Assembly (NCBI GenBank): GCA_041667185.1 | Contig: JBAYFM010000001.1 | Coordinates: 32,052 to 96,051 of the forward strand | From: Patescibacteria group bacterium | GTDB taxonomy: Bacteria; Patescibacteriota; Patescibacteriia; SG8-24 | DNA length: 64,000 bases | Direction: 5' to 3' | Part shown: piece after piece, positions 2,095-12,755 of the stretch | Position numbering within the stretch: the stretch's first letter is position 1 | How the letters are laid out: the number at the start of each line of letters is the position of its first letter | Translations under genes and position numbers: made by a program | Notes under the pieces: model-generated | Databases searched by the model: none | Told to the model about the DNA's origin: nothing | What the model saw: only the letters and a program-made list of their open reading frames with translations

Positions 2095-3444
2095 ATGGCC
2101 ATGAAAAGCAAGCTGAAAAAATTGGTTCCGGCCCGTTTTTTTGACGTTTACCACCTGGTCCTGGCTTATTTCGCGGCCTGGCGCCATGGCTTCCCATCGG
2201 AGAAAATGATCGTCATCGGCGTGACCGGCACGAACGGCAAATCGACCACCGCGAATCTCATCGCCCGCATCCTCGAGGAAGCGGGGGAGAAGGTCGGTCT
2301 CACGACGACCGTCAATTTCCGCATCGCCGGCCAGGACTGGCTGAACGACACCAAGATGACCATGCTCGGGCGATCGCGCCTGCAGGCGCTCCTGGCGCGG
2401 ATGGTCGCGGCCGGCTGCCGCTACGCCGTGGTCGAAACCTCTTCCGAGGGCGTCAAACAGCATCGCCACGCGGCCATCAATTATGACGCCGTCGTTTTCA
2501 CGAATCTGACGCCGGAACACCTGGAGTCGCACGGCGGCTTCGAGAATTACAAGCGAGCCAAGGGCGAACTGTTCCGCCATCTGACCGCGCGGCCGGTCAA
2601 GAGATTCGGCGGCCGCGAGATCGTTAAAACTTCCGTCGTCAATCTGAACGATCCGCACGCCGGATATTTCTTGTCTTTCGCCGCGCCGAAGAAGATCGGT
2701 TATCGCGCGGAACTGCCCGGCCGCAGCGCCGTCGCCGCCGCTGTGGATGAAACAACGGTCGCGACCGATGTCCGCGTCACCACCGAAGGTTCCGCGTTCA
2801 GCGTCGGCGGCGCCGCGTTCTTGCTGAAATTGCTCGGCGCTTTCAATGTCGAGAACGCGCTCGCGGCCATCGCGGTCACGAGCAGCCTCGGCGTGCCGCT
2901 TGCGACCGCGGCCCGGGCGCTCGCCAAGATCGAGGTCGTCCCCGGACGCATGGAATTCATCGCGGCCGGCCAGCCGTTCGCCGTGCTCGTCGATTACGCC
3001 CCGGAACCGGAATCCTTCCGCAAATTATACGAAGCGGTCGCCCTGTTCCCGAAGAAGCGCATCATCCACGTGCTGGGTTCCTGCGGCGGCGGCCGCGACC
3101 GCGATCGCCGGCCGGTGCTCGGACGCCTGGCCGCGGAGCACGCCGATATTGTGATCGTCACGAACGAGGATCCGTACGACGACGACCCGCTGGAGATCAT
3201 CCGCGAGGTCGCCGCCGGAGCGCGCGCGGCCGGCAAGCGAGAGAGGGAGAGTCTCTTCCTGGTTCCGGAGCGCCACGAGGCTTTGCGACAAGCTGTTGAT
3301 CTAGCCGCGCCCGGCGACCTGGTCATCGCGACCGGCAAGGGCGCGGAGCAAGCCATCGTCGGCGCGCACGGCGCCAGACAACCCTGGGATGAACGCGTCG
3401 AATTGCGCCGGCTCATCGCCCGCCGGCTCGCCGACGGTAAATAA
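2095..3444 (+). CDS. Mur ligase family protein (MurE/MurT-like)
   Basis: P-loop GVTGTNGKSTT, Mur ligase middle-domain architecture and a C-terminal domain. It lacks the usual N-terminal domain of MurC-F. Confidence 0.6.
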   Translation: MAMKSKLKKLVPARFFDVYHLVLAYFAAWRHGFPSEKMIVIGVTGTNGKSTTANLIARILEEAGEKVGLTTTVNFRIAGQDWLNDTKMTMLGRSRLQALLARMVAAGCRYAVVETSSEGVKQHRHAAINYDAVVFTNLTPEHLESHGGFENYKRAKGELFRHLTARPVKRFGGREIVKTSVVNLNDPHAGYFLSFAAPKKIGYRAELPGRSAVAAAVDETTVATDVRVTTEGSAFSVGGAAFLLKLLGAFNVENALAAIAVTSSLGVPLATAARALAKIEVVPGRMEFIAAGQPFAVLVDYAPEPESFRKLYEAVALFPKKRIIHVLGSCGGGRDRDRRPVLGRLAAEHADIVIVTNEDPYDDDPLEIIREVAAGARAAGKRERESLFLVPERHEALRQAVDLAAPGDLVIATGKGAEQAIVGAHGARQPWDERVELRRLIARRLADGK

Positions 3445-3452
3445 ACCTCGCT

Positions 3453-4145
3453 ATGTCGCTGCTCAAAGCCGTCAAACTGAAAGAGGGGGAGATCGTCGTG
3501 ATGATCCTGCGTCATTTTCCGCTGGTCTACGCGCCGCGGGTCCTGGCTGGCCTTTTGCTCGTGTCCGCGCCGTTCTTTTTCATGGTGCCGCTCTTCGCCA
3601 TGCGAGGCTTCGGCGTGCCGTGGGGGCTGTTCATTTTCGCCGCCTCCGTGCTGGCCGGCCTGCTCCACTCTTTGAAGACCTTTGTCGTCTGGTATTGGAA
3701 CGCTTTCATCATCACCAATCTGCGCGTCATCGACGTCGACCAGCGCGGTTTTTTCGAGCGCACCGTTTCGGAGGCGGCGTATGACAAGGTCCAGGACGTT
3801 TCGTATAAGATCAAGGGATTCTGGGGGACGCTCCTGAATTACGGCACGCTGATCATCCAGACCGCCGGCACCACTTCGAACCTGGAGTTGGAGTACGCGC
3901 GCGATCCCAAAGAGGTGCAGCACCTGCTCTCCGAGATCTTGGCCGCGCGACTGGCGGTGCCGGCTGGCGCTCGCAACGAGAAAGTCTCGGCGCTGCTTGA
4001 GGCGGCGGCGAGCCTGACGGATATCGAGGCCAAGGCCTTCCTAGTCGAACTCAAAGGAGCGGTAAACAACAAGGAGCCGAGGTCGGAGGCGGTCGATCAG
4101 GCCGACGTCGAGAAACTGATGAAGGATGATTCGGCGCAGGATTGA
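3453..4145 (+). CDS. Bacterial PH-domain (YdbT/bPH_2-like) membrane protein
   Basis: Two N-terminal TM helices followed by a bPH_2-like region (FWGTLLNYGTLIIQTAGTTSNLELEYARDPKEVQHLLSEI). Confidence 0.5.
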   Translation: MSLLKAVKLKEGEIVVMILRHFPLVYAPRVLAGLLLVSAPFFFMVPLFAMRGFGVPWGLFIFAASVLAGLLHSLKTFVVWYWNAFIITNLRVIDVDQRGFFERTVSEAAYDKVQDVSYKIKGFWGTLLNYGTLIIQTAGTTSNLELEYARDPKEVQHLLSEILAARLAVPAGARNEKVSALLEAAASLTDIEAKAFLVELKGAVNNKEPRSEAVDQADVEKLMKDDSAQD

Positions 4146-4166
4146 TCCCGCCGCACCGGTCAAAGT

Positions 4167-4574
4167 ATGGACCAGCATCAGAAGGCCAACGGCAGTTTTC
4201 TGGGCCGCCGCCGCATTCTCGCGGCCAATCTGGTCTTGTTGTTTCTGGTTGCCTGGGGATTTGCCGGCGAGCTGGCGCGTAATAACGCCATGAAGCGGGA
4301 TGTCGCCCGTCTGGAGGAACAGGCGCGGAAGCTGGAAGATGAGAACTTCGACATCGCCAAGCTGGGCCAGAAGTTCGCCGCGGCCGACGTTCTGGAGCGC
4401 GAGGCCAGGCTCAATCTTGGTTTGCAGAAGCCTGGGGAATCAGTTATCATCATCAAGGAAACTACGCCGCCGCCGCCGGCTCAGCCGCCGGAGGCAACCG
4501 GGTCCGCAGAGTCCCGGCCGCGCGAGTCGAACGCGCTGAAATGGTGGCGATATTTTTTTCATCAGAAACCATAA
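4167..4574 (+). CDS. FtsB/DivIC-like septum formation initiator
   Basis: N-terminal TM segment then a coiled coil (ARLEEQARKLEDENFDIAKL...LNLGLQKPGESVIII), typical of FtsB/DivIC. Confidence 0.5.
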   Translation: MDQHQKANGSFLGRRRILAANLVLLFLVAWGFAGELARNNAMKRDVARLEEQARKLEDENFDIAKLGQKFAAADVLEREARLNLGLQKPGESVIIIKETTPPPPAQPPEATGSAESRPRESNALKWWRYFFHQKP

Positions 4575-5727: not shown

Positions 5728-6309
5728 TCATTCTTTTCTGCCGTGGAGGTGAACCTGGTCGTGCGTCCATTCGTTCTTCAGGGCCTCGGTCAGCAGCGCC
5801 TCGGTCTCCGGGTCCAGTTGGCCCTTGAGTGCCTTGAGCAAAGCGTAGCCCTGACAGGACAGCCCGAGCCGCTTCTCCATGGACCGGTAGTACTTATACG
5901 CCAGCCACAGGAACGGCGACAGCGGCACTAAGAATGGCAGTGAGAAAAAGGCGACGCCGATCTCGCCGGAACCCCCGGGTCCATTGTCGAGAAGCCACGC
6001 GCTGGAGTAGGTATGATCGATCCGGCGCGTCTCATAATTGATAGCGATCGTACATGGCTCTAGAGCCTCCTGCTCGTCGTACTTGTAGTGCAGATCCATG
6101 TTGATGCATCTCAATGGCGGATATAGGTGACCCTTCGATGGATCACAGGTTGCGACTGGAGGCCAATCCAGTTCGTGGCGTTCGCGTTCCCGGCGCGTTT
6201 CAAAGTCGTGGTCGACCGTCAGTTTCAGCCGGTGCGGCGGGCGAACCCAGAAATTGATGCCTGAGAGGACGATAGACGGTATCAGAGCCAGTTTTTCGGT
6301 GAACTTCAC
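5728..6309 (-). CDS. Hypothetical protein, N-terminal hydrophobic segment
   Basis: ORF 5728..6483(-). The likely start is GTG at 6309, preceded by AGGAGG at 6 nt spacing (rc of ttcttcctcctgg). No recognisable domain. Upstream sequence runs into the repeat array. Confidence 0.4.
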   Translation of the reverse strand: MKFTEKLALIPSIVLSGINFWVRPPHRLKLTVDHDFETRRERERHELDWPPVATCDPSKGHLYPPLRCINMDLHYKYDEQEALEPCTIAINYETRRIDHTYSSAWLLDNGPGGSGEIGVAFFSLPFLVPLSPFLWLAYKYYRSMEKRLGLSCQGYALLKALKGQLDPETEALLTEALKNEWTHDQVHLHGRKE

Positions 6310-6418
6310 GTTCTTCCTCCTGGTTGCGATCGAGCTTGTCGGCCCAATCTGCAGAGAAGATGTCAACGAACTGCTGATAATCTGGCAGTATTCCGATGAG
6401 AAGTCAACGGGCCGATAT

Positions 6419-7140
6419 TCAAAAGCGCCGAGCTTACGCCCGGCGCTTTCATTTGTGGAGCCACCTCGGGGAATCCGGCTCACCCGGCGGCGCTGGAAAA
6501 GTTCTCATGTGCGCCGCCTCCTTCGCCGCCCGCCGCATCTCGCCGTGCCATACTAGGCACGGCTCGCTGTCGGCTTCGATTCCCCGACCTATCTCTATAC
6601 GTAAAAAGCGCCTGGGATGAACCCAGCCGCTTTTTATGATGGAGCCACCTCGGGGAATCCTCCTCCCCCGCAGCTCGTCACTTGGGGCCCCTACCCCAAG
6701 TACTCACTGCTCCTCCGGAGCCCGGGTCGTCTCGGCTTGCCATACTAGGCAAGCCTCGCCGTACCCTTCGATTCCCCGACCTATCTCTATACGTAAAAAG
6801 CGCCTGGGATGAACCCAGCCGCTTTTTACGATGGAGCCACCTCGGGGAATCCTCCTCCCCCATAGCCCGTTACTTGGGGCCCCTGCCCCAAGTACTCACT
6901 GCTCCTCCGGAGCCCGGGTCGTCTCGGCTTGCCATACTAGGCAAGCCTCACCGTACCCTTCGATTCCCCTTCGGTGGCTTCTATATTTCAAAAGCGCCGA
7001 GCTTGCGCCCGGCGCTTTCATTTGTGGAGCCACCTCGGGGAATCGAACCCCGGACCTCTGCTTTACGAAAGCATTGCCCTACGGCGTGTCGGCCATGCTT
7101 GGCCGACATTTGGATAGGCGGCTAAGGCCGCCACCTCTAG
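6419..7140. repeat. Tandem array of ~184-193-bp units carrying copies of the tRNA-Thr 3' end plus terminator-like hairpins
   Basis: tggagccacctcggggaatc recurs at 6456, 6640, 6832 and 7025; the 7025 copy matches tRNA-Thr over 53 nt. Two hairpin types alternate: aaaagcgccgagctt(a/g)cgcccggcgcttt at 6419 and 6990, and aaaaagcgcctgggatgaacccagccgcttttt at 6603 and 6795. Units beginning cgattccccgac at 6577, 6769 and 6961 have an exact 192-bp period. Confidence 0.75.
7025..7140 (-). pseudogene. tRNA-Thr-like degenerate copy (3' 53 nt identical to tRNA-Thr, 5' half rearranged with an inserted hairpin)
   Basis: Identical to the genuine tRNA-Thr from the CCA end through the anticodon stem. It then diverges: a 5' strand that could still pair with the acceptor (rc gccgcct) and a gtcggccatgcttggccgac hairpin replacing the D-arm. 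Confidence 0.35.
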
Positions 7141-7253
7141 CCGCAAGCCGCAGTATCGGACGAACTTAGCGCCTTTGCGCGAAGTTCTGTCCGGCGGCTT
7201 ACCAGCTGAGCATGAGGCAAACGAAAAACGGCCGCTTGCGCGGTCGTCTTTCG

Positions 7254-7329
7254 TGGAGCCACCTCGGGGAATCGAACCCCGGACCTCTGCTTTACGAAAG
7301 CATTGCTCTACCAGCTGAGCTAAGGTGGC
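7254..7329 (-). tRNA. tRNA-Thr (anticodon CGT), CCA encoded
   Basis: rc folds as a canonical cloverleaf: GCCACCT / TA / GCTC-AGCTGGTA-GAGC / A / ATGCT-TTCGTAA-AGCAG / AGGTC / CGGGG-TTCGATT-CCCCG / AGGTGGC / T / CCA. Anticodon CGU. Confidence 0.9.
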
Positions 7330-9973: not shown

Positions 9974-10043
9974 GCGCTTGACGCGGGACCGGTCAGACCA
10001 TAATCTGGTCTTTTGAGATCCGGCGGTCGATAGTCGTTTCAGC

Positions 10044-10114
10044 TCGGGGGTCGTCTAAAGGTAGGACCGCAGCCTTTGAAGCTGCTTATCTTGGTTCGAT
10101 TCCAAGCCCCCGAG
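10044..10114 (+). tRNA. tRNA-Gln (anticodon TTG), CCA not encoded
   Basis: TCGGGGG / TC / GTCT-AAAGGTA-GGAC / C / GCAGC-CTTTGAA-GCTGC / TTAT / CTTGG-TTCGATT-CCAAG / CCCCCGA / G. U1:A72 and G73 are typical of bacterial tRNA-Gln. Confidence 0.85.
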
Positions 10115-10324
10115 CCGAGTCGATTATCGCTGGCGCCGCGCGAAGCTGCTTACCGCAGGTCCGTCCGTCAGGACGGACATTATAAATACGCGGCGGTGGC
10201 CGCCACCGCTTGCGGCAAGCCCGCCCTGGTTCCCGCACGAAGTGCGGGGCGGGCTTATCTTGGTTCGATTCCAAGCCCCCGAGCCGAGTCGATTATCGCT
10301 GGCGCCGCGCGAAGCTGCTTACCG
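10084..10324 (+). repeat. 72-bp direct repeat (tRNA-Gln 3' 31 nt plus 41 nt downstream) flanking a ~98-bp hairpin-rich spacer
   Basis: gcttatcttggttcgattccaagcccccgagccgagtcgattatcgctggcgccgcgcgaagctgcttaccg occurs identically at 10084-10155 and 10253-10324. The spacer contains hairpins gtccgtccgtcaggacggac and gcggtggccgccaccgc. Confidence 0.75.
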
Positions 10325-10333
10325 TATTCTCAT

Positions 10334-10366
10334 AAAAAAATCCCGCAACTCATCAGGTTGCGGGAT
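10334..10366 (-). terminator. Rho-independent terminator for the minus-strand membrane-protein gene
   Basis: aaaaaaatcccgcaac-tcatcag-gttgcgggat; on the minus strand the hairpin is followed by a T-run. Confidence 0.55.
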
Positions 10367-10377
10367 CGAATTTGGAT

Positions 10378-10983
10378 TCAGAACAGTTTGAGTCCGCGCT
10401 GCCAGCGGCGCAGGACGCAGACCGCGCCGACGCCGCCGTCCGCGAGCAGGCTGCAGAGCGGGTAGGCGAGATCGATCCACTGTCCTTGCCAGCGCAGGAC
10501 GACGACGATCAGGCTGATGATATAGGCCAGGCCGAAACCGAACCAGGCGAGCGGTTTCTCGGTCAGCGGATCGCGCCAGACGCCGCGGAAAGTGGGGATG
10601 TTCGAGATCAGGAAAGCGACCTGGAGGAGCAGGTTGGCCCAGGCAGCGTCCCGCGAGACCCACCAGATCAGTCCGGCCGTCGAACCGATGGCGAGAATGA
10701 CTCCGTCGAAGCGCGAGAGCCGGGAAAGTTTTCCTTTGCTCGCGGCCAGGGTCAGGGTCACGGCGCAGGCGGCGGCGCCGGCGATGGGCGTGACCGACTT
10801 GGCCCAGTCCGCGCTCATGATGAGATAGCTCGCGGCGTTCAGGCCGGCCAGGAAAGTCCACAGGAGCCAGGTCGTGGTGTTGGGGCGCGACGCTCCGGTG
10901 AGCATTTGGCGATTATAAAGAGCATAAGAGGACAAGTGGATGAGACCGGCCAGGAGGCCGAGGCAGGAGCTGATTTCTAACAT
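10378..10983 (-). CDS. Hypothetical polytopic membrane protein
   Basis: Six or more predicted TM helices and no recognisable motif. Probable start is the M at 10983 (MLEISSCLGLLAGL). Confidence 0.4.
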   Translation of the reverse strand: MLEISSCLGLLAGLIHLSSYALYNRQMLTGASRPNTTTWLLWTFLAGLNAASYLIMSADWAKSVTPIAGAAACAVTLTLAASKGKLSRLSRFDGVILAIGSTAGLIWWVSRDAAWANLLLQVAFLISNIPTFRGVWRDPLTEKPLAWFGFGLAYIISLIVVVLRWQGQWIDLAYPLCSLLADGGVGAVCVLRRWQRGLKLF

Positions 10984-11280
10984 AGGATATATGGTAACAA
11001 TAGCATTGGCGGAGAAGAAATTGATAGGCCACATCGAAATATCGACTTTCGGATGGTCAAGATATTCCGGATCAGGCTGGCATTGGTGCGCGGAAGCTGT
11101 GAATGATCGGTTGGATTGTCGATCGGGTAGATATCCACAACCCTGTTCCAGTCGATTTTTTGTTGTACTGGTTCAGGGTGGTGGCTCTGGGATCAAAGTT
11201 CATAATACCACCCTCCCCTTGACACATATGAAAAAATGTAATTATAATATTGATATATTCTAATACTGAAGTATTTTTTT

Positions 11281-11729: not shown

Positions 11730-12755
11730 ATGGATTCAGGAGCCATCAAGCTGATCTTCAGCGCCCTGGCGAATCCGATCCGTCTGGACATCCTGCACGC
11801 GCTTTATCACGGCGAGAAGAACGTGACCGAACTGGTCCGTGAACTTAGGCGCGATCAGAGTTTGGTCTCCCATAATTTGAAGCGACTCGTCGCATCTAAG
11901 CTCATCCGTTCCCGCAAGGAAGGGCAGTTCCGGTACTACTCGCTGCATCAGGGGTCGGTCGCCCCGCTTCTCCGCAACATTGAGGAACTCAAGAAATTCA
12001 TGGTCAGTAAAAGCGACGAGGTGCGCCGCCAGACGCAGGCTCGTTATGATCAGATCGTCCGGATGACTCCGGCGGCTCTCTTCATCCAGAAGAACGGGGC
12101 GGTCACTTTCGCCAATCGCGCCGGTCTGAAATTGCTCGCCGCCAAGAAAGAGTCCGATATTATCGGCCGGTCGTTCGAGGGGCTCACTAGTCCGGAATGC
12201 CGCGTCGAGATCAAGAAGAGATACATGGCCATGGCCGATGGCCGCAAACTGAAGGCTTATGAGACCCGGATCGTGCGGTTGGATGGCCGGGTCATCGATG
12301 TCCTGGCCAACGAGGAACCTTTGCAGGACGGCAGTAATAACAGCTGCATCGCCGTGCTGGTCGATATCACCGAGCAAAAGGAGATCGAGCGGAGGCTAGC
12401 CGCGGATCAGAACCTGATCAGGATGGCGTTGTCCGCGACTCGTGCGGTCGCCTGGCGCTGGGATATCAAGACCAACCGCGTAGAGATGCTGGGTGACGCC
12501 ATCGGCGTCCTGGGGGCGCGGCCGACCACCTCCCAGGCTATCTGGGCGTTGCTGCATCTTGATGATCTGCCTGTGATGCGCGGCGATTTCGAGGCTTCCA
12601 TGACCAAGCCGCGCGCCTCTTACGTCCGCCGCTGCCGGATCATCCGTCCGGATACCCGCGAGGTGAAGTGGGTCGAGCTCCACTCTTTCGGTTTTTACGA
12701 GAACGGGGTGAAAACACTCGTCGTCGGCATGGCGATCGAGGTCGAAGGAAAGTAG
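11730..12755 (+). CDS. ArsR-type HTH fused to tandem PAS domains (sensor regulator)
   Basis: N-terminus ALANPIRLDILHALYHGEKNVTELVRELRRDQSLVSHNLKRL (ArsR), followed by two PAS-like segments (PAALFIQKNGAVTFANRAG... and AVAWRWDIKTNRVEMLGD...). Confidence 0.6.
   Translation: MDSGAIKLIFSALANPIRLDILHALYHGEKNVTELVRELRRDQSLVSHNLKRLVASKLIRSRKEGQFRYYSLHQGSVAPLLRNIEELKKFMVSKSDEVRRQTQARYDQIVRMTPAALFIQKNGAVTFANRAGLKLLAAKKESDIIGRSFEGLTSPECRVEIKKRYMAMADGRKLKAYETRIVRLDGRVIDVLANEEPLQDGSNNSCIAVLVDITEQKEIERRLAADQNLIRMALSATRAVAWRWDIKTNRVEMLGDAIGVLGARPTTSQAIWALLHLDDLPVMRGDFEASMTKPRASYVRRCRIIRPDTREVKWVELHSFGFYENGVKTLVVGMAIEVEGK

Follow-up and report, generated by a model that had tools for sequence, protein, structure and literature searches.

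The 3′ part of the tRNA-Gln gene in a 64,000-nucleotide (nt) stretch of a Patescibacteria group bacterium genome (GenBank assembly GCA_041667185.1, contig JBAYFM010000001.1, positions 32,052 to 96,051; this whole stretch is hereafter the window, and its own numbering is used) was found to be repeated a short distance downstream, with a GC-rich, hairpin-forming spacer between the two copies. The explanation ranked first, and given an even chance of being correct, is that the resulting 169-bp unit is a miniature remnant, flanked by attachment (att) sites, of an integrative element specific for tRNA-Gln, and that it is gained and lost by recombination between the repeats. It was placed first because the repeat has the geometry of integration, an allele with one unit fewer exists, the distribution of the unit is patchy, and a second tRNA gene carries stacked copies. 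Partial tRNA copies are routinely taken as footprints of integrated elements, and the tRNA-Gln repeat mostly fits, so that the locus is most likely an ordinary kind of tRNA-linked scar with an unusually small and well-conserved body. What is unusual is that the whole insert is about the size of one attachment site, that the same unit is shared by two species, one of which is polymorphic for it, and that its non-coding core is conserved like a tRNA. All of the data are metagenome assemblies.

As proposed in an earlier note on this sequence, the end of the tRNA-Gln gene and the following nucleotides form a perfect direct repeat (A; 72 of 72 positions, 10084–10155 and 10253–10324, 169 nt from start to start), and 0 of 100 shuffled sequences gave even one match. 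The repeat takes in the final 31 nt of the tRNA (positions 41–71) and 41 nt of trailer, or 33 and 39 nt if the gene end predicted by ARAGORN is used (10044–10116, 2 nt longer than the Rfam call). A tRNA was called at copy 1 only; copy 2 was considered as a tRNA-like element and rejected, as the 5′ acceptor strand is absent and both ARAGORN and Rfam are silent there. T3 (44 nt), C (28 nt) and B (97 nt) are the three blocks of the 169-bp unit; their arrangement in the window is as follows.

10044–10114, forward strand: intact tRNA-Gln(UUG) gene, CCA not encoded (Rfam RF00005, 59.3 bits)
10084–10155, forward strand: copy 1 of the repeat (A1), with T3 at 10084–10127 (tRNA positions 41–71 and a 13-nt trailer arm) and C at 10128–10155
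10142–10152, forward strand: 11-nt copy of tRNA positions 35–45 at the end of C, GAAGCTGCTTA
10156–10252, strand unassigned: spacer B, 97 bp with three hairpins, unique in the window
10159–10178: hairpin 1 in B, GTCCGTCC-GTCA-GGACGGAC
10180–10188: AT-rich patch in B, TTATAAATA
10193–10209: hairpin 2 in B, GCGGTGGC-C-GCCACCGC
10218–10257: composite hairpin 3, CCCGCAC-GAA-GTGCGGG nested in AAGCCCGCCC/GGGCGGGCTT, the last 5 nt being inside copy 2
10253–10324, forward strand: copy 2 of the repeat (A2), with T3(2) at 10253–10296 and C(2) at 10297–10324

The spacer had been described as a 98-bp cluster of GC hairpins. All three of the hairpins quoted are present, and B together with C has a GC content of 70%, but the length of the spacer is 97 bp. 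Compared with shuffled sequences, C and B fold strongly as DNA (z = −4.7), as does the region 10117–10370 as RNA (z = −5.9). The 11-nt tRNA fragment GAAGCTGCTTA is found a second time at 10311–10321.

The repeat extends from inside the tRNA gene to beyond its 3′ end, with the intact tRNA at the proximal copy and a truncated tRNA at the distal copy, which is the geometry of site-specific integration. As in an att pair, the 3′ part of the tRNA forms the direct repeat and a complete tRNA is found at one end only. The composition of the repeat became apparent from a second species, represented by two contigs, L007 (ENA, sample ERZ27266623) and L008 (JGI, sample 3300033513), with three differences between them, all outside the tRNA-Gln locus. 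The FtsX protein of this species shares 88% amino acid (aa) sequence identity with that of the window, and the neighbouring 253-aa protein 63%; only two other homologues of the latter were found among 5.8 billion proteins. In L007 and L008, the tRNA-Gln gene is followed by the trailer, C, B and a second copy of the tRNA 3′ end (tRNA-T3-C-B-T3). The repeat in L007 is only 44 nt long (43 of 44 positions identical), ending precisely at the end of the trailer arm, the partner of the tRNA leader in base pairing; copy 1 is followed by C (CGCCGGCGCCTCGCGGAGCTGCTTACCG) and copy 2 by TTTTATTTT. The L007 insert (C-B-T3) is likewise 169 bp, and the distal copy retains the native flank, as is predicted for an attR site.

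As L007 duplicates T3 only, the 72-bp repeat of the window is compound (T3 and C). In L007, C is present solely inside the insert, and in other relatives the trailer leads into a T-run or terminator, hence C is best read from these sequences as part of the unit rather than as native trailer. The order in the window is therefore tRNA/T3-C-B-T3-C-flank, in which the B-T3-C junction is chromosomal sequence, and the window contains an attL, one unit and an attP-type B-T3-C junction but no intact attR flank. Homology with the right flank of L007 resumes at 10332 (blastn, 10332–10959 against L007 3474–4094, 77% nt identity), and ~570 bp of L007 (2906–3473), including a gene for a 133-aa response regulator, are missing from the window species. 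At the position of this gene, the window has block C and a further 7 nt (10297–10331).

If these arms are correctly assigned, an element targeting tRNA-Gln would have integrated site-specifically, T3 being the identity block common to attP and attB, C the start of the element-side arm beside the rebuilt tRNA (attL), and B the element-side arm beside the displaced tRNA 3′ end (attR). The rest of the element may have been lost, or the unit may be a miniature derivative devoid of genes from the start. The second C of the window species creates the attP-type junction, suggesting that the unit was laid down more than once. It could have been placed on a site that already carried C, or a tandem arrangement could have been truncated later, and either would account for a repeat of 72 bp rather than 44 bp, for the chromosomal B-T3-C junction and for the ~570 bp missing to the right. 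Present gain and loss would occur by recombination between the 72-nt repeats, whether homologous or through an integrase from another source, and such recombination would explain why near-identical strains have either A-B-A or A as their allele. The anatomy of the locus, its polymorphism, the phylogenetic distribution of the unit and its conservation are observations, while an integrase origin, the arms as assigned and any mobility today are inferred.

The single-copy allele was found in JGI contig L002, which agrees with the window at every position (100%) of the 4978 nt that end at 10155, and is 99.86% identical to it from position 10253 on (9890 nt with one mismatch and one gap). L002 carries one copy of the repeat and no spacer, and thus differs from the window by exactly one 169-bp period, i.e. 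the insert and one repeat. Its layout is tRNA/T3-C-flank, and as block C is still there, L002 represents a scar-bearing rather than a virgin site. Exact look-ups of five window proteins detected no strains besides L002, contig L001 and a pair of Logan contigs. The window species was represented in samples ERZ27249449, SRR6484324 and JGI 3300037810. A second difference was noted between L002 and the window: the gene for a 341-aa HTH-PAS regulator (window 11730–12755; L002 6384–7422) is called as two open reading frames (ORFs) of 181 and 158 aa in L002, probably due to a single indel to the right of the tRNA, estimated from the alignment lengths at 13 nt.

Among other relatives, the unit was absent from L006, the sister of L007, where the tRNA is followed by the trailer arm and TTTTTT, with no insert in the 117 nt before the contig ends. 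FtsX genes share 91% nt identity between L006 and L007 and 86% between either of them and the window, giving the tree ((L006, L007), window), and the distribution of the unit is therefore patchy. Three more distant relatives (L012, L017 and L019) have one tRNA-Gln gene with an ordinary terminator directly after it. The fourth, L014 (FtsX 63%), has a 59-nt, 88%-identical repeat of its own at tRNA-Gln (locus 3953–4171) with a period of 177 nt; it begins in the T-loop and takes in the terminator, and an inverted, degenerate copy of the tRNA's 3′ half is also present. The L014 duplication is independent of, and older than, that in the window. In L019 only an inverted copy of the T-arm was found (3299–3344). 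A search of GTDB genomes for the locus, based on FtsX, found no relative.

It had been suggested earlier that the two copies are an attL/attR footprint left by a nearly completely deleted element or a miniature non-autonomous one. The repeat anatomy, the allele lacking 169 bp in L002 and the patchy presence in relatives agree with the footprint, although the repeat is not a simple core but T3 with C. An origin as the remnant of random deletion is, however, unlikely, as the same 169-bp unit is found in two species. It had also been held that conservation of the arrangement across divergent relatives would speak against a scar; the arrangement was found in one relative, the L007 species, but not in its sister or in the four more distant ones, and its presence in one relative only neither refutes nor confirms that the unit is a scar.

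The tRNA-Gln gene is not the only one affected. The earlier note had pointed to a tRNA-Thr array with att-like scars, and four extra copies of the tRNA 3′ end were indeed found at this locus, 2.7 kb upstream of tRNA-Gln.

6415–7329, reverse strand: tRNA-Thr(CGU) at 7329–7254 and four further copies of its 3′ end, with the 3′ ends of the copies near 7025, 6832, 6640 and 6456

The copies are spaced at 229, 193, 192 and 184 nt and each is followed by a terminator-like hairpin. Units u2–u4 are related to one another and include an inverted copy of the segment from the T-loop to the 3′ end, two units being 89% to 95% identical depending on the stretch compared. In contig L001, the array is one 192-nt unit shorter than in the window, and the relatives have a single tRNA-Thr. 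Units u2–u4 and the L014 tRNA-Gln unit have a common layout, namely a terminator, ACCC with the inverted T-loop-to-3′-end copy, hairpins, a purine-rich tract, and a direct copy starting from GATTCC. The stacked tRNA-Thr copies with their variable copy number, and the separate tRNA-Gln repeat in L014, indicate that tRNA genes in this clade have been hit repeatedly, and they are repeatedly decorated with units of ~170–230 nt. The motif ACCCTTCGATTCC, present in the L014 and L019 loci, also occurs in the window's tRNA-Thr units. The array is bordered at its far end by an ORF of 193–212 aa (5728–6366, reverse strand) that has no Pfam or PHROG match; no gene is present at this position in L012, L014 or L019, and L017 has only a 92-aa ORF. 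This ORF could be cargo of a former element.

The conservation of each part of the locus was assessed by comparing the window with L007 and the identities are listed below.

FtsX gene: 86% nt (third codon positions, 71%)
Gene for the 253-aa protein: 74% nt
tRNA leader: 76%
tRNA-Gln: 70/71
Trailer arm: 11/13
C: 25/28
B: 95/97, the last 73 nt identical
T3(2): 43/44

Spacer B is thus 98% identical where neutral sites are ~71–76% identical, and at an expected identity of 76% the binomial probability of two or fewer changes in 97 nt is ~1e-9. B is as conserved as the tRNA itself. Neither of its two substitutions affects a paired position: hairpin 1 carries one in its loop, and the other is the base that follows this hairpin. 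Recent transfer of the whole unit would leave C as similar as B; what is seen requires selection on B or recombination tracts limited to B-T3(2).

Several observations weigh against an att-flanked remnant, the first being that a dead scar inherited vertically would not be predicted to keep B at 95 of 97 positions or to keep it better than C and the trailer together (5 differences in 41; Fisher p = 0.02). Both copies of the trailer arm bear the species' own base (A in the window, G in L007), which, if the identity block was brought in by attP, needs gene conversion or spread within the species. The sizes of the units are oddly uniform for unrelated events (169, 177 and 184–229 nt). No integrase gene lies inside the element, where 97–125 bp of non-coding DNA is all that separates the repeats, and, as the earlier note had it, none is near the tRNA loci: ORFs of at least 170 aa in the window yielded no domain of an integrase or another recombinase, and the Pfam tables for the flanking 20 kb list none either. 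The ORFs lacking Pfam domains that adjoin the two tRNA loci had no integrase or phage-like match in Pfam or PHROGs.

Searches for a parent element or further copies also weigh against a remnant. B, C and three versions of the tRNA 3′ parts had no match in viral contigs, nor did the left half of B, the right half of B or the trailer when searched there. A 24-mer from B had no match in GTDB species genomes and a single match in JGI metagenome contigs, which was the L008 contig itself; the trailer had none in the JGI contigs. The trailer, C and B together gave no blastn hit in phages and two chance hits to GC-rich Streptomyces sequence in plasmids. Searches of the window and all fetched loci for further copies of B or the 72-bp repeat gave chance-level matches only. 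Direct 7- to 10-mers in C and B, which could represent arm-type repeats, are not above the shuffle expectation. B is GC-rich, unlike most attP arms, and its sole AT-rich patch is TTATAAATA. Finally, a 169-bp circle is very small as a recombination substrate.

Other readings of B were tried and rejected. Translations of five of its six frames had no match among the 5.8 billion proteins, and a non-coding B speaks for the remnant; an ORF of 110–129 aa starting at a TTG in the anticodon loop is called by no pipeline and was rejected as a gene. B was compared by eye with tRNA positions 1–40, as the decayed 5′ half of a second tRNA in a tandem duplication, and no likeness was seen. A similarity of 21 in 24 positions between B and the first tRNA-Thr spacer was judged to be chance, as the two are in opposite orientation relative to their tRNAs and the sequence is palindromic and GC-rich.

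A unit of fixed length, 169 bp, in two species and a near-invariant B are not explained by a plain scar. They raise the prospect, possible though improbable, that the unit is a living, gene-less module consisting of att sites only, moved in trans by an integrase from elsewhere or spread by natural transformation and recombination through the tRNA-derived repeats. B would then be held near-invariant by selection, either for recombination or as an RNA in the tRNA trailer, and the unit would belong to a wider class of 170–230-bp units behind the tRNAs of this clade (tRNA-Gln, 169 bp; tRNA-Gln in L014, 177 bp; tRNA-Thr, 184–229 bp).

A related explanation, compatible with an att-flanked remnant and itself considered unlikely, is that B has been kept for a function in a selected 3′-trailer module, either as a DNA site or as a structured RNA co-transcribed with tRNA-Gln. 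In the RNA version, the transcript would contain in order the leader, tRNA, trailer, C, B, second T-arm and a T-run or terminator. The level of conservation of B, its excess over that of C and the trailer, and the unpaired positions of both substitutions are all as this explanation expects; folding is strong (z = −4.5 to −5.9), and there is no terminator between the tRNA and B, with the T-run in L007 found only after the second copy. However, B is absent from L006, in which 117 nt are available, and from the near-identical L002. No Rfam family was matched: when B was compared with Rfam 15 at E values up to 1, only tRNAs passed the threshold, the best other model being P9 (20.3 bits against a threshold of 43, E = 0.52). 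There are just two distinct B sequences, too few to look for covariation, and no promoter within B is evident from a consensus scan. Different genes lie to the right in the two species, making a cis-regulatory role for the neighbouring gene unlikely. Small RNAs can derive from the 3′ external transcribed spacer (ETS) of tRNA operons, for example 3′ETS-leuZ of E. coli. By analogy, a structured tRNA-trailer segment such as B could be freed by processing and act alone, but unlike those RNAs the B segment lacks a family match and is absent in close relatives.

Rather unlikely, too, is an origin in DNA repair without any mobile element, whereby serial template switching by microhomology, at a tRNA gene that is highly transcribed and forms structures, duplicated the tRNA 3′ part and added B as a templated fragment, with unequal crossing-over then changing the copy number. 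Short tRNA fragments at the left edge of the spacers do overlap the next copy in the manner of microhomologies. The 11-nt fragment at tRNA-Gln overlaps the start of the next tRNA copy by 5 nt (GCTTA), and its L007 version, GGAGCTGCTTA, agrees with the variant in the L007 tRNA (A37 to G37). The first tRNA-Thr spacer begins with tRNA positions 10–21, continues with 117 nt of three hairpins (z = −8.0) and is followed by a copy from position 19, giving an overlap of 3 nt (GTA; window 7200–7211 and 7080–7082). Inverted and direct copies of the tRNA 3′ end occur together in some units (L014, L019 and tRNA-Thr u2–u4), as fold-back synthesis would give, copy number differs between near-identical genomes at both tRNAs, and neither an integrase nor a parent element was found.

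Against repair, two species whose right flanks differ have the identical 169-bp unit, which is missing in the sister of one of them, so that a shared unit needs either one event and transfer, or an ancient origin with strong conservation of B. The window and the fetched loci offered no template for B, and the repeat geometry with the native flank at the distal copy is what integration predicts. The 11-nt and 12-nt fragments themselves can be template-switch microhomologies, short target duplications, or truncated att copies from earlier elements whose identity block was not the same, i.e. products of accretion.

Insertion of a small transposable element resembling a MITE (miniature inverted-repeat transposable element) is very improbable. 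Under this explanation, 100 bp (CCG and B, 10153–10252) inserted into an older partial tRNA copy, duplicating GCTTA, which is indeed present on both sides (10148–10152 and 10253–10257); when the insert is removed, tRNA positions 35–84 read through, and a parallel is seen at tRNA-Thr with a 117-nt insert and GTA. Like bacterial MITEs, the segment is small, non-coding and hairpin-rich with a short flanking duplication. It differs from them in lacking real terminal inverted repeats (just 4 nt, CCGC/GCGG) and in being single-copy in the window and all fetched loci, with the B 24-mer matching one contig in the whole JGI set and no GTDB genome. By copy number, this explanation is close to refuted, and the tRNA duplication itself would still need a separate event.

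Least probable of all is an assembly artefact, either a chimeric A-B-A or a single-copy allele that is a collapsed repeat: metagenome assembly was used throughout, a de Bruijn graph with k below 72 sees A-B-A as a loop, and the 192-nt difference between the tRNA-Thr arrays of the window and L001 could be a collapse, but A-B-A is present in both the window and a k = 141 contig, and T3-C-B-T3, with the spacer between two tRNA 3′ copies, in two assemblies of another species. The k = 141 contig is L001 (ENA, MEGAHIT k141), in which A-B-A is identical to that in the window; L001 is not the source of the window, as it ends ~3.9 kb inside it and differs by 8 single-nucleotide polymorphisms in 13 kb and by the missing 192-nt unit, with further differences in and near the tRNA-Thr array. 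In SRR6484324, the Logan k = 31 contigs break within the repeat, and one of them (L005) starts exactly 30 nt (k − 1) before the right end of the repeat, which fits a true branch from A to B and from A to the flank. L002 comes from another sample and has a mismatch and an indel elsewhere, and thus represents a distinct genome, although collapse of a loop by the assembler is possible as the source of its single copy.

The unit was also compared with known systems. Footprints of this kind are left by tRNA-targeted integration, an example being the 44-bp repeats around PYG1 at the Gln-TTG gene of Pyrococcus yayanosii (PMC9897764). As in the tRNA att duplications of prophages, integrative conjugative elements (ICEs) and genomic islands, the repeat starts within the tRNA and extends past its 3′ end, the complete tRNA is at one end and a 5′-truncated copy at the other, the distal copy has the native flank (in L007), and a close strain has exactly one unit fewer. 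Unlike these, only 125 bp (C and B) and no gene or integrase separate the repeats of a single unit, and the repeat in the window is extended by 28 element-side bases to give the attP-type junction. The repeat also starts at tRNA position 41 rather than in the anticodon loop or T-loop, and hence the crossover point is not evident. Sublocation classes of tRNA-gene integration sites were reportedly described by Williams in 2002 (cited in PMC9897764).

Cis-mobilizable elements (CIMEs), which arise by decay and accretion (Pavlovic 2004 and Bellanger 2011, reviewed in PMC5704250), have attL and attR sites without integration or transfer genes, as does the tRNA-Gln unit. Integration beside old remnants produces tandem structures with internal hybrid att sites (PMC5704250), and the tandem, compound structure seen here fits this scheme. 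However, the CIMEs described so far measure kilobases and trace back to recognisable ICEs or integrative and mobilizable elements in Firmicutes, whereas the unit here is 169 bp, and no autonomous element related to it was found in viral, metagenome, genome, phage or plasmid collections. Tandem direct repeats of ssrA and ssrA-associated genomic islands in Dehalococcoides (PMC3146451) are similar in that many copies of the 3′ end lie downstream of a single-copy, tRNA-like gene in a small, streamlined genome, with copy number varying between strains and some units lacking the integration module. They differ in having 20-bp repeats, islands of several kilobases and a serine-recombinase module, where the units here are gene-less and 169–229 bp long.

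Should the unit still be able to move, it would rank as the smallest passenger dependent on an integrase so far described and would mark gene flow among uncultured Patescibacteria, a group with poorly known mobile elements. If it is no more than a scar, the locus still shows fast turnover of tRNA-linked repeats in a streamlined genome. In either case, annotators should be aware that such fragments and their copy number vary between near-identical genomes and between assemblies.

The sequences flanking the tRNA-Gln locus contain the following features.

9978–10004, forward strand: putative tRNA-Gln promoter, with TTGACG at 9978–9983, a 15-nt spacing and CATAAT at 9999–10004
10028–10043, forward strand: leader arm (inverted repeat I1) that pairs with the trailer at 10115–10127 and extends the acceptor stem of the precursor
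10339–10367, reverse strand: intrinsic terminator of the convergent gene for a 218-aa membrane protein (10378–11034), where homology with L007 resumes

The probable tRNA-Gln promoter was missed by the consensus scan because of its 15-nt spacing; CTTGAC...ATAAT is kept in L007, L006 and L012, where the remaining leader is just 67–76% identical. The leader and trailer arms covary in three species, being CGATAGTCG/TCGATTATCG in the window, CGATAGCCG/TCGGTTATCG in L007 (2634–2649 with 2721–2733) and ATGGCCGT/ACGGCCAT in L006 (2422–2437 with 2509–2521). A T-run directly follows the trailer arm in L006 and the copy-2 trailer arm in L007, and the entire tRNA may therefore sit within a terminator stem. 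To the left, the order tRNA-Thr, tRNA-Gly, FtsE, FtsX and the 253-aa protein, named as a hypothetical protein by NCBI, is retained across the clade. Further away, the first 2000 nt of the window have a GC content of 0.44, compared with ~0.60 elsewhere, and include a gene for a TrmB-like regulator (844–1671) with a low GC content at third codon positions (GC3); this region may be foreign DNA.

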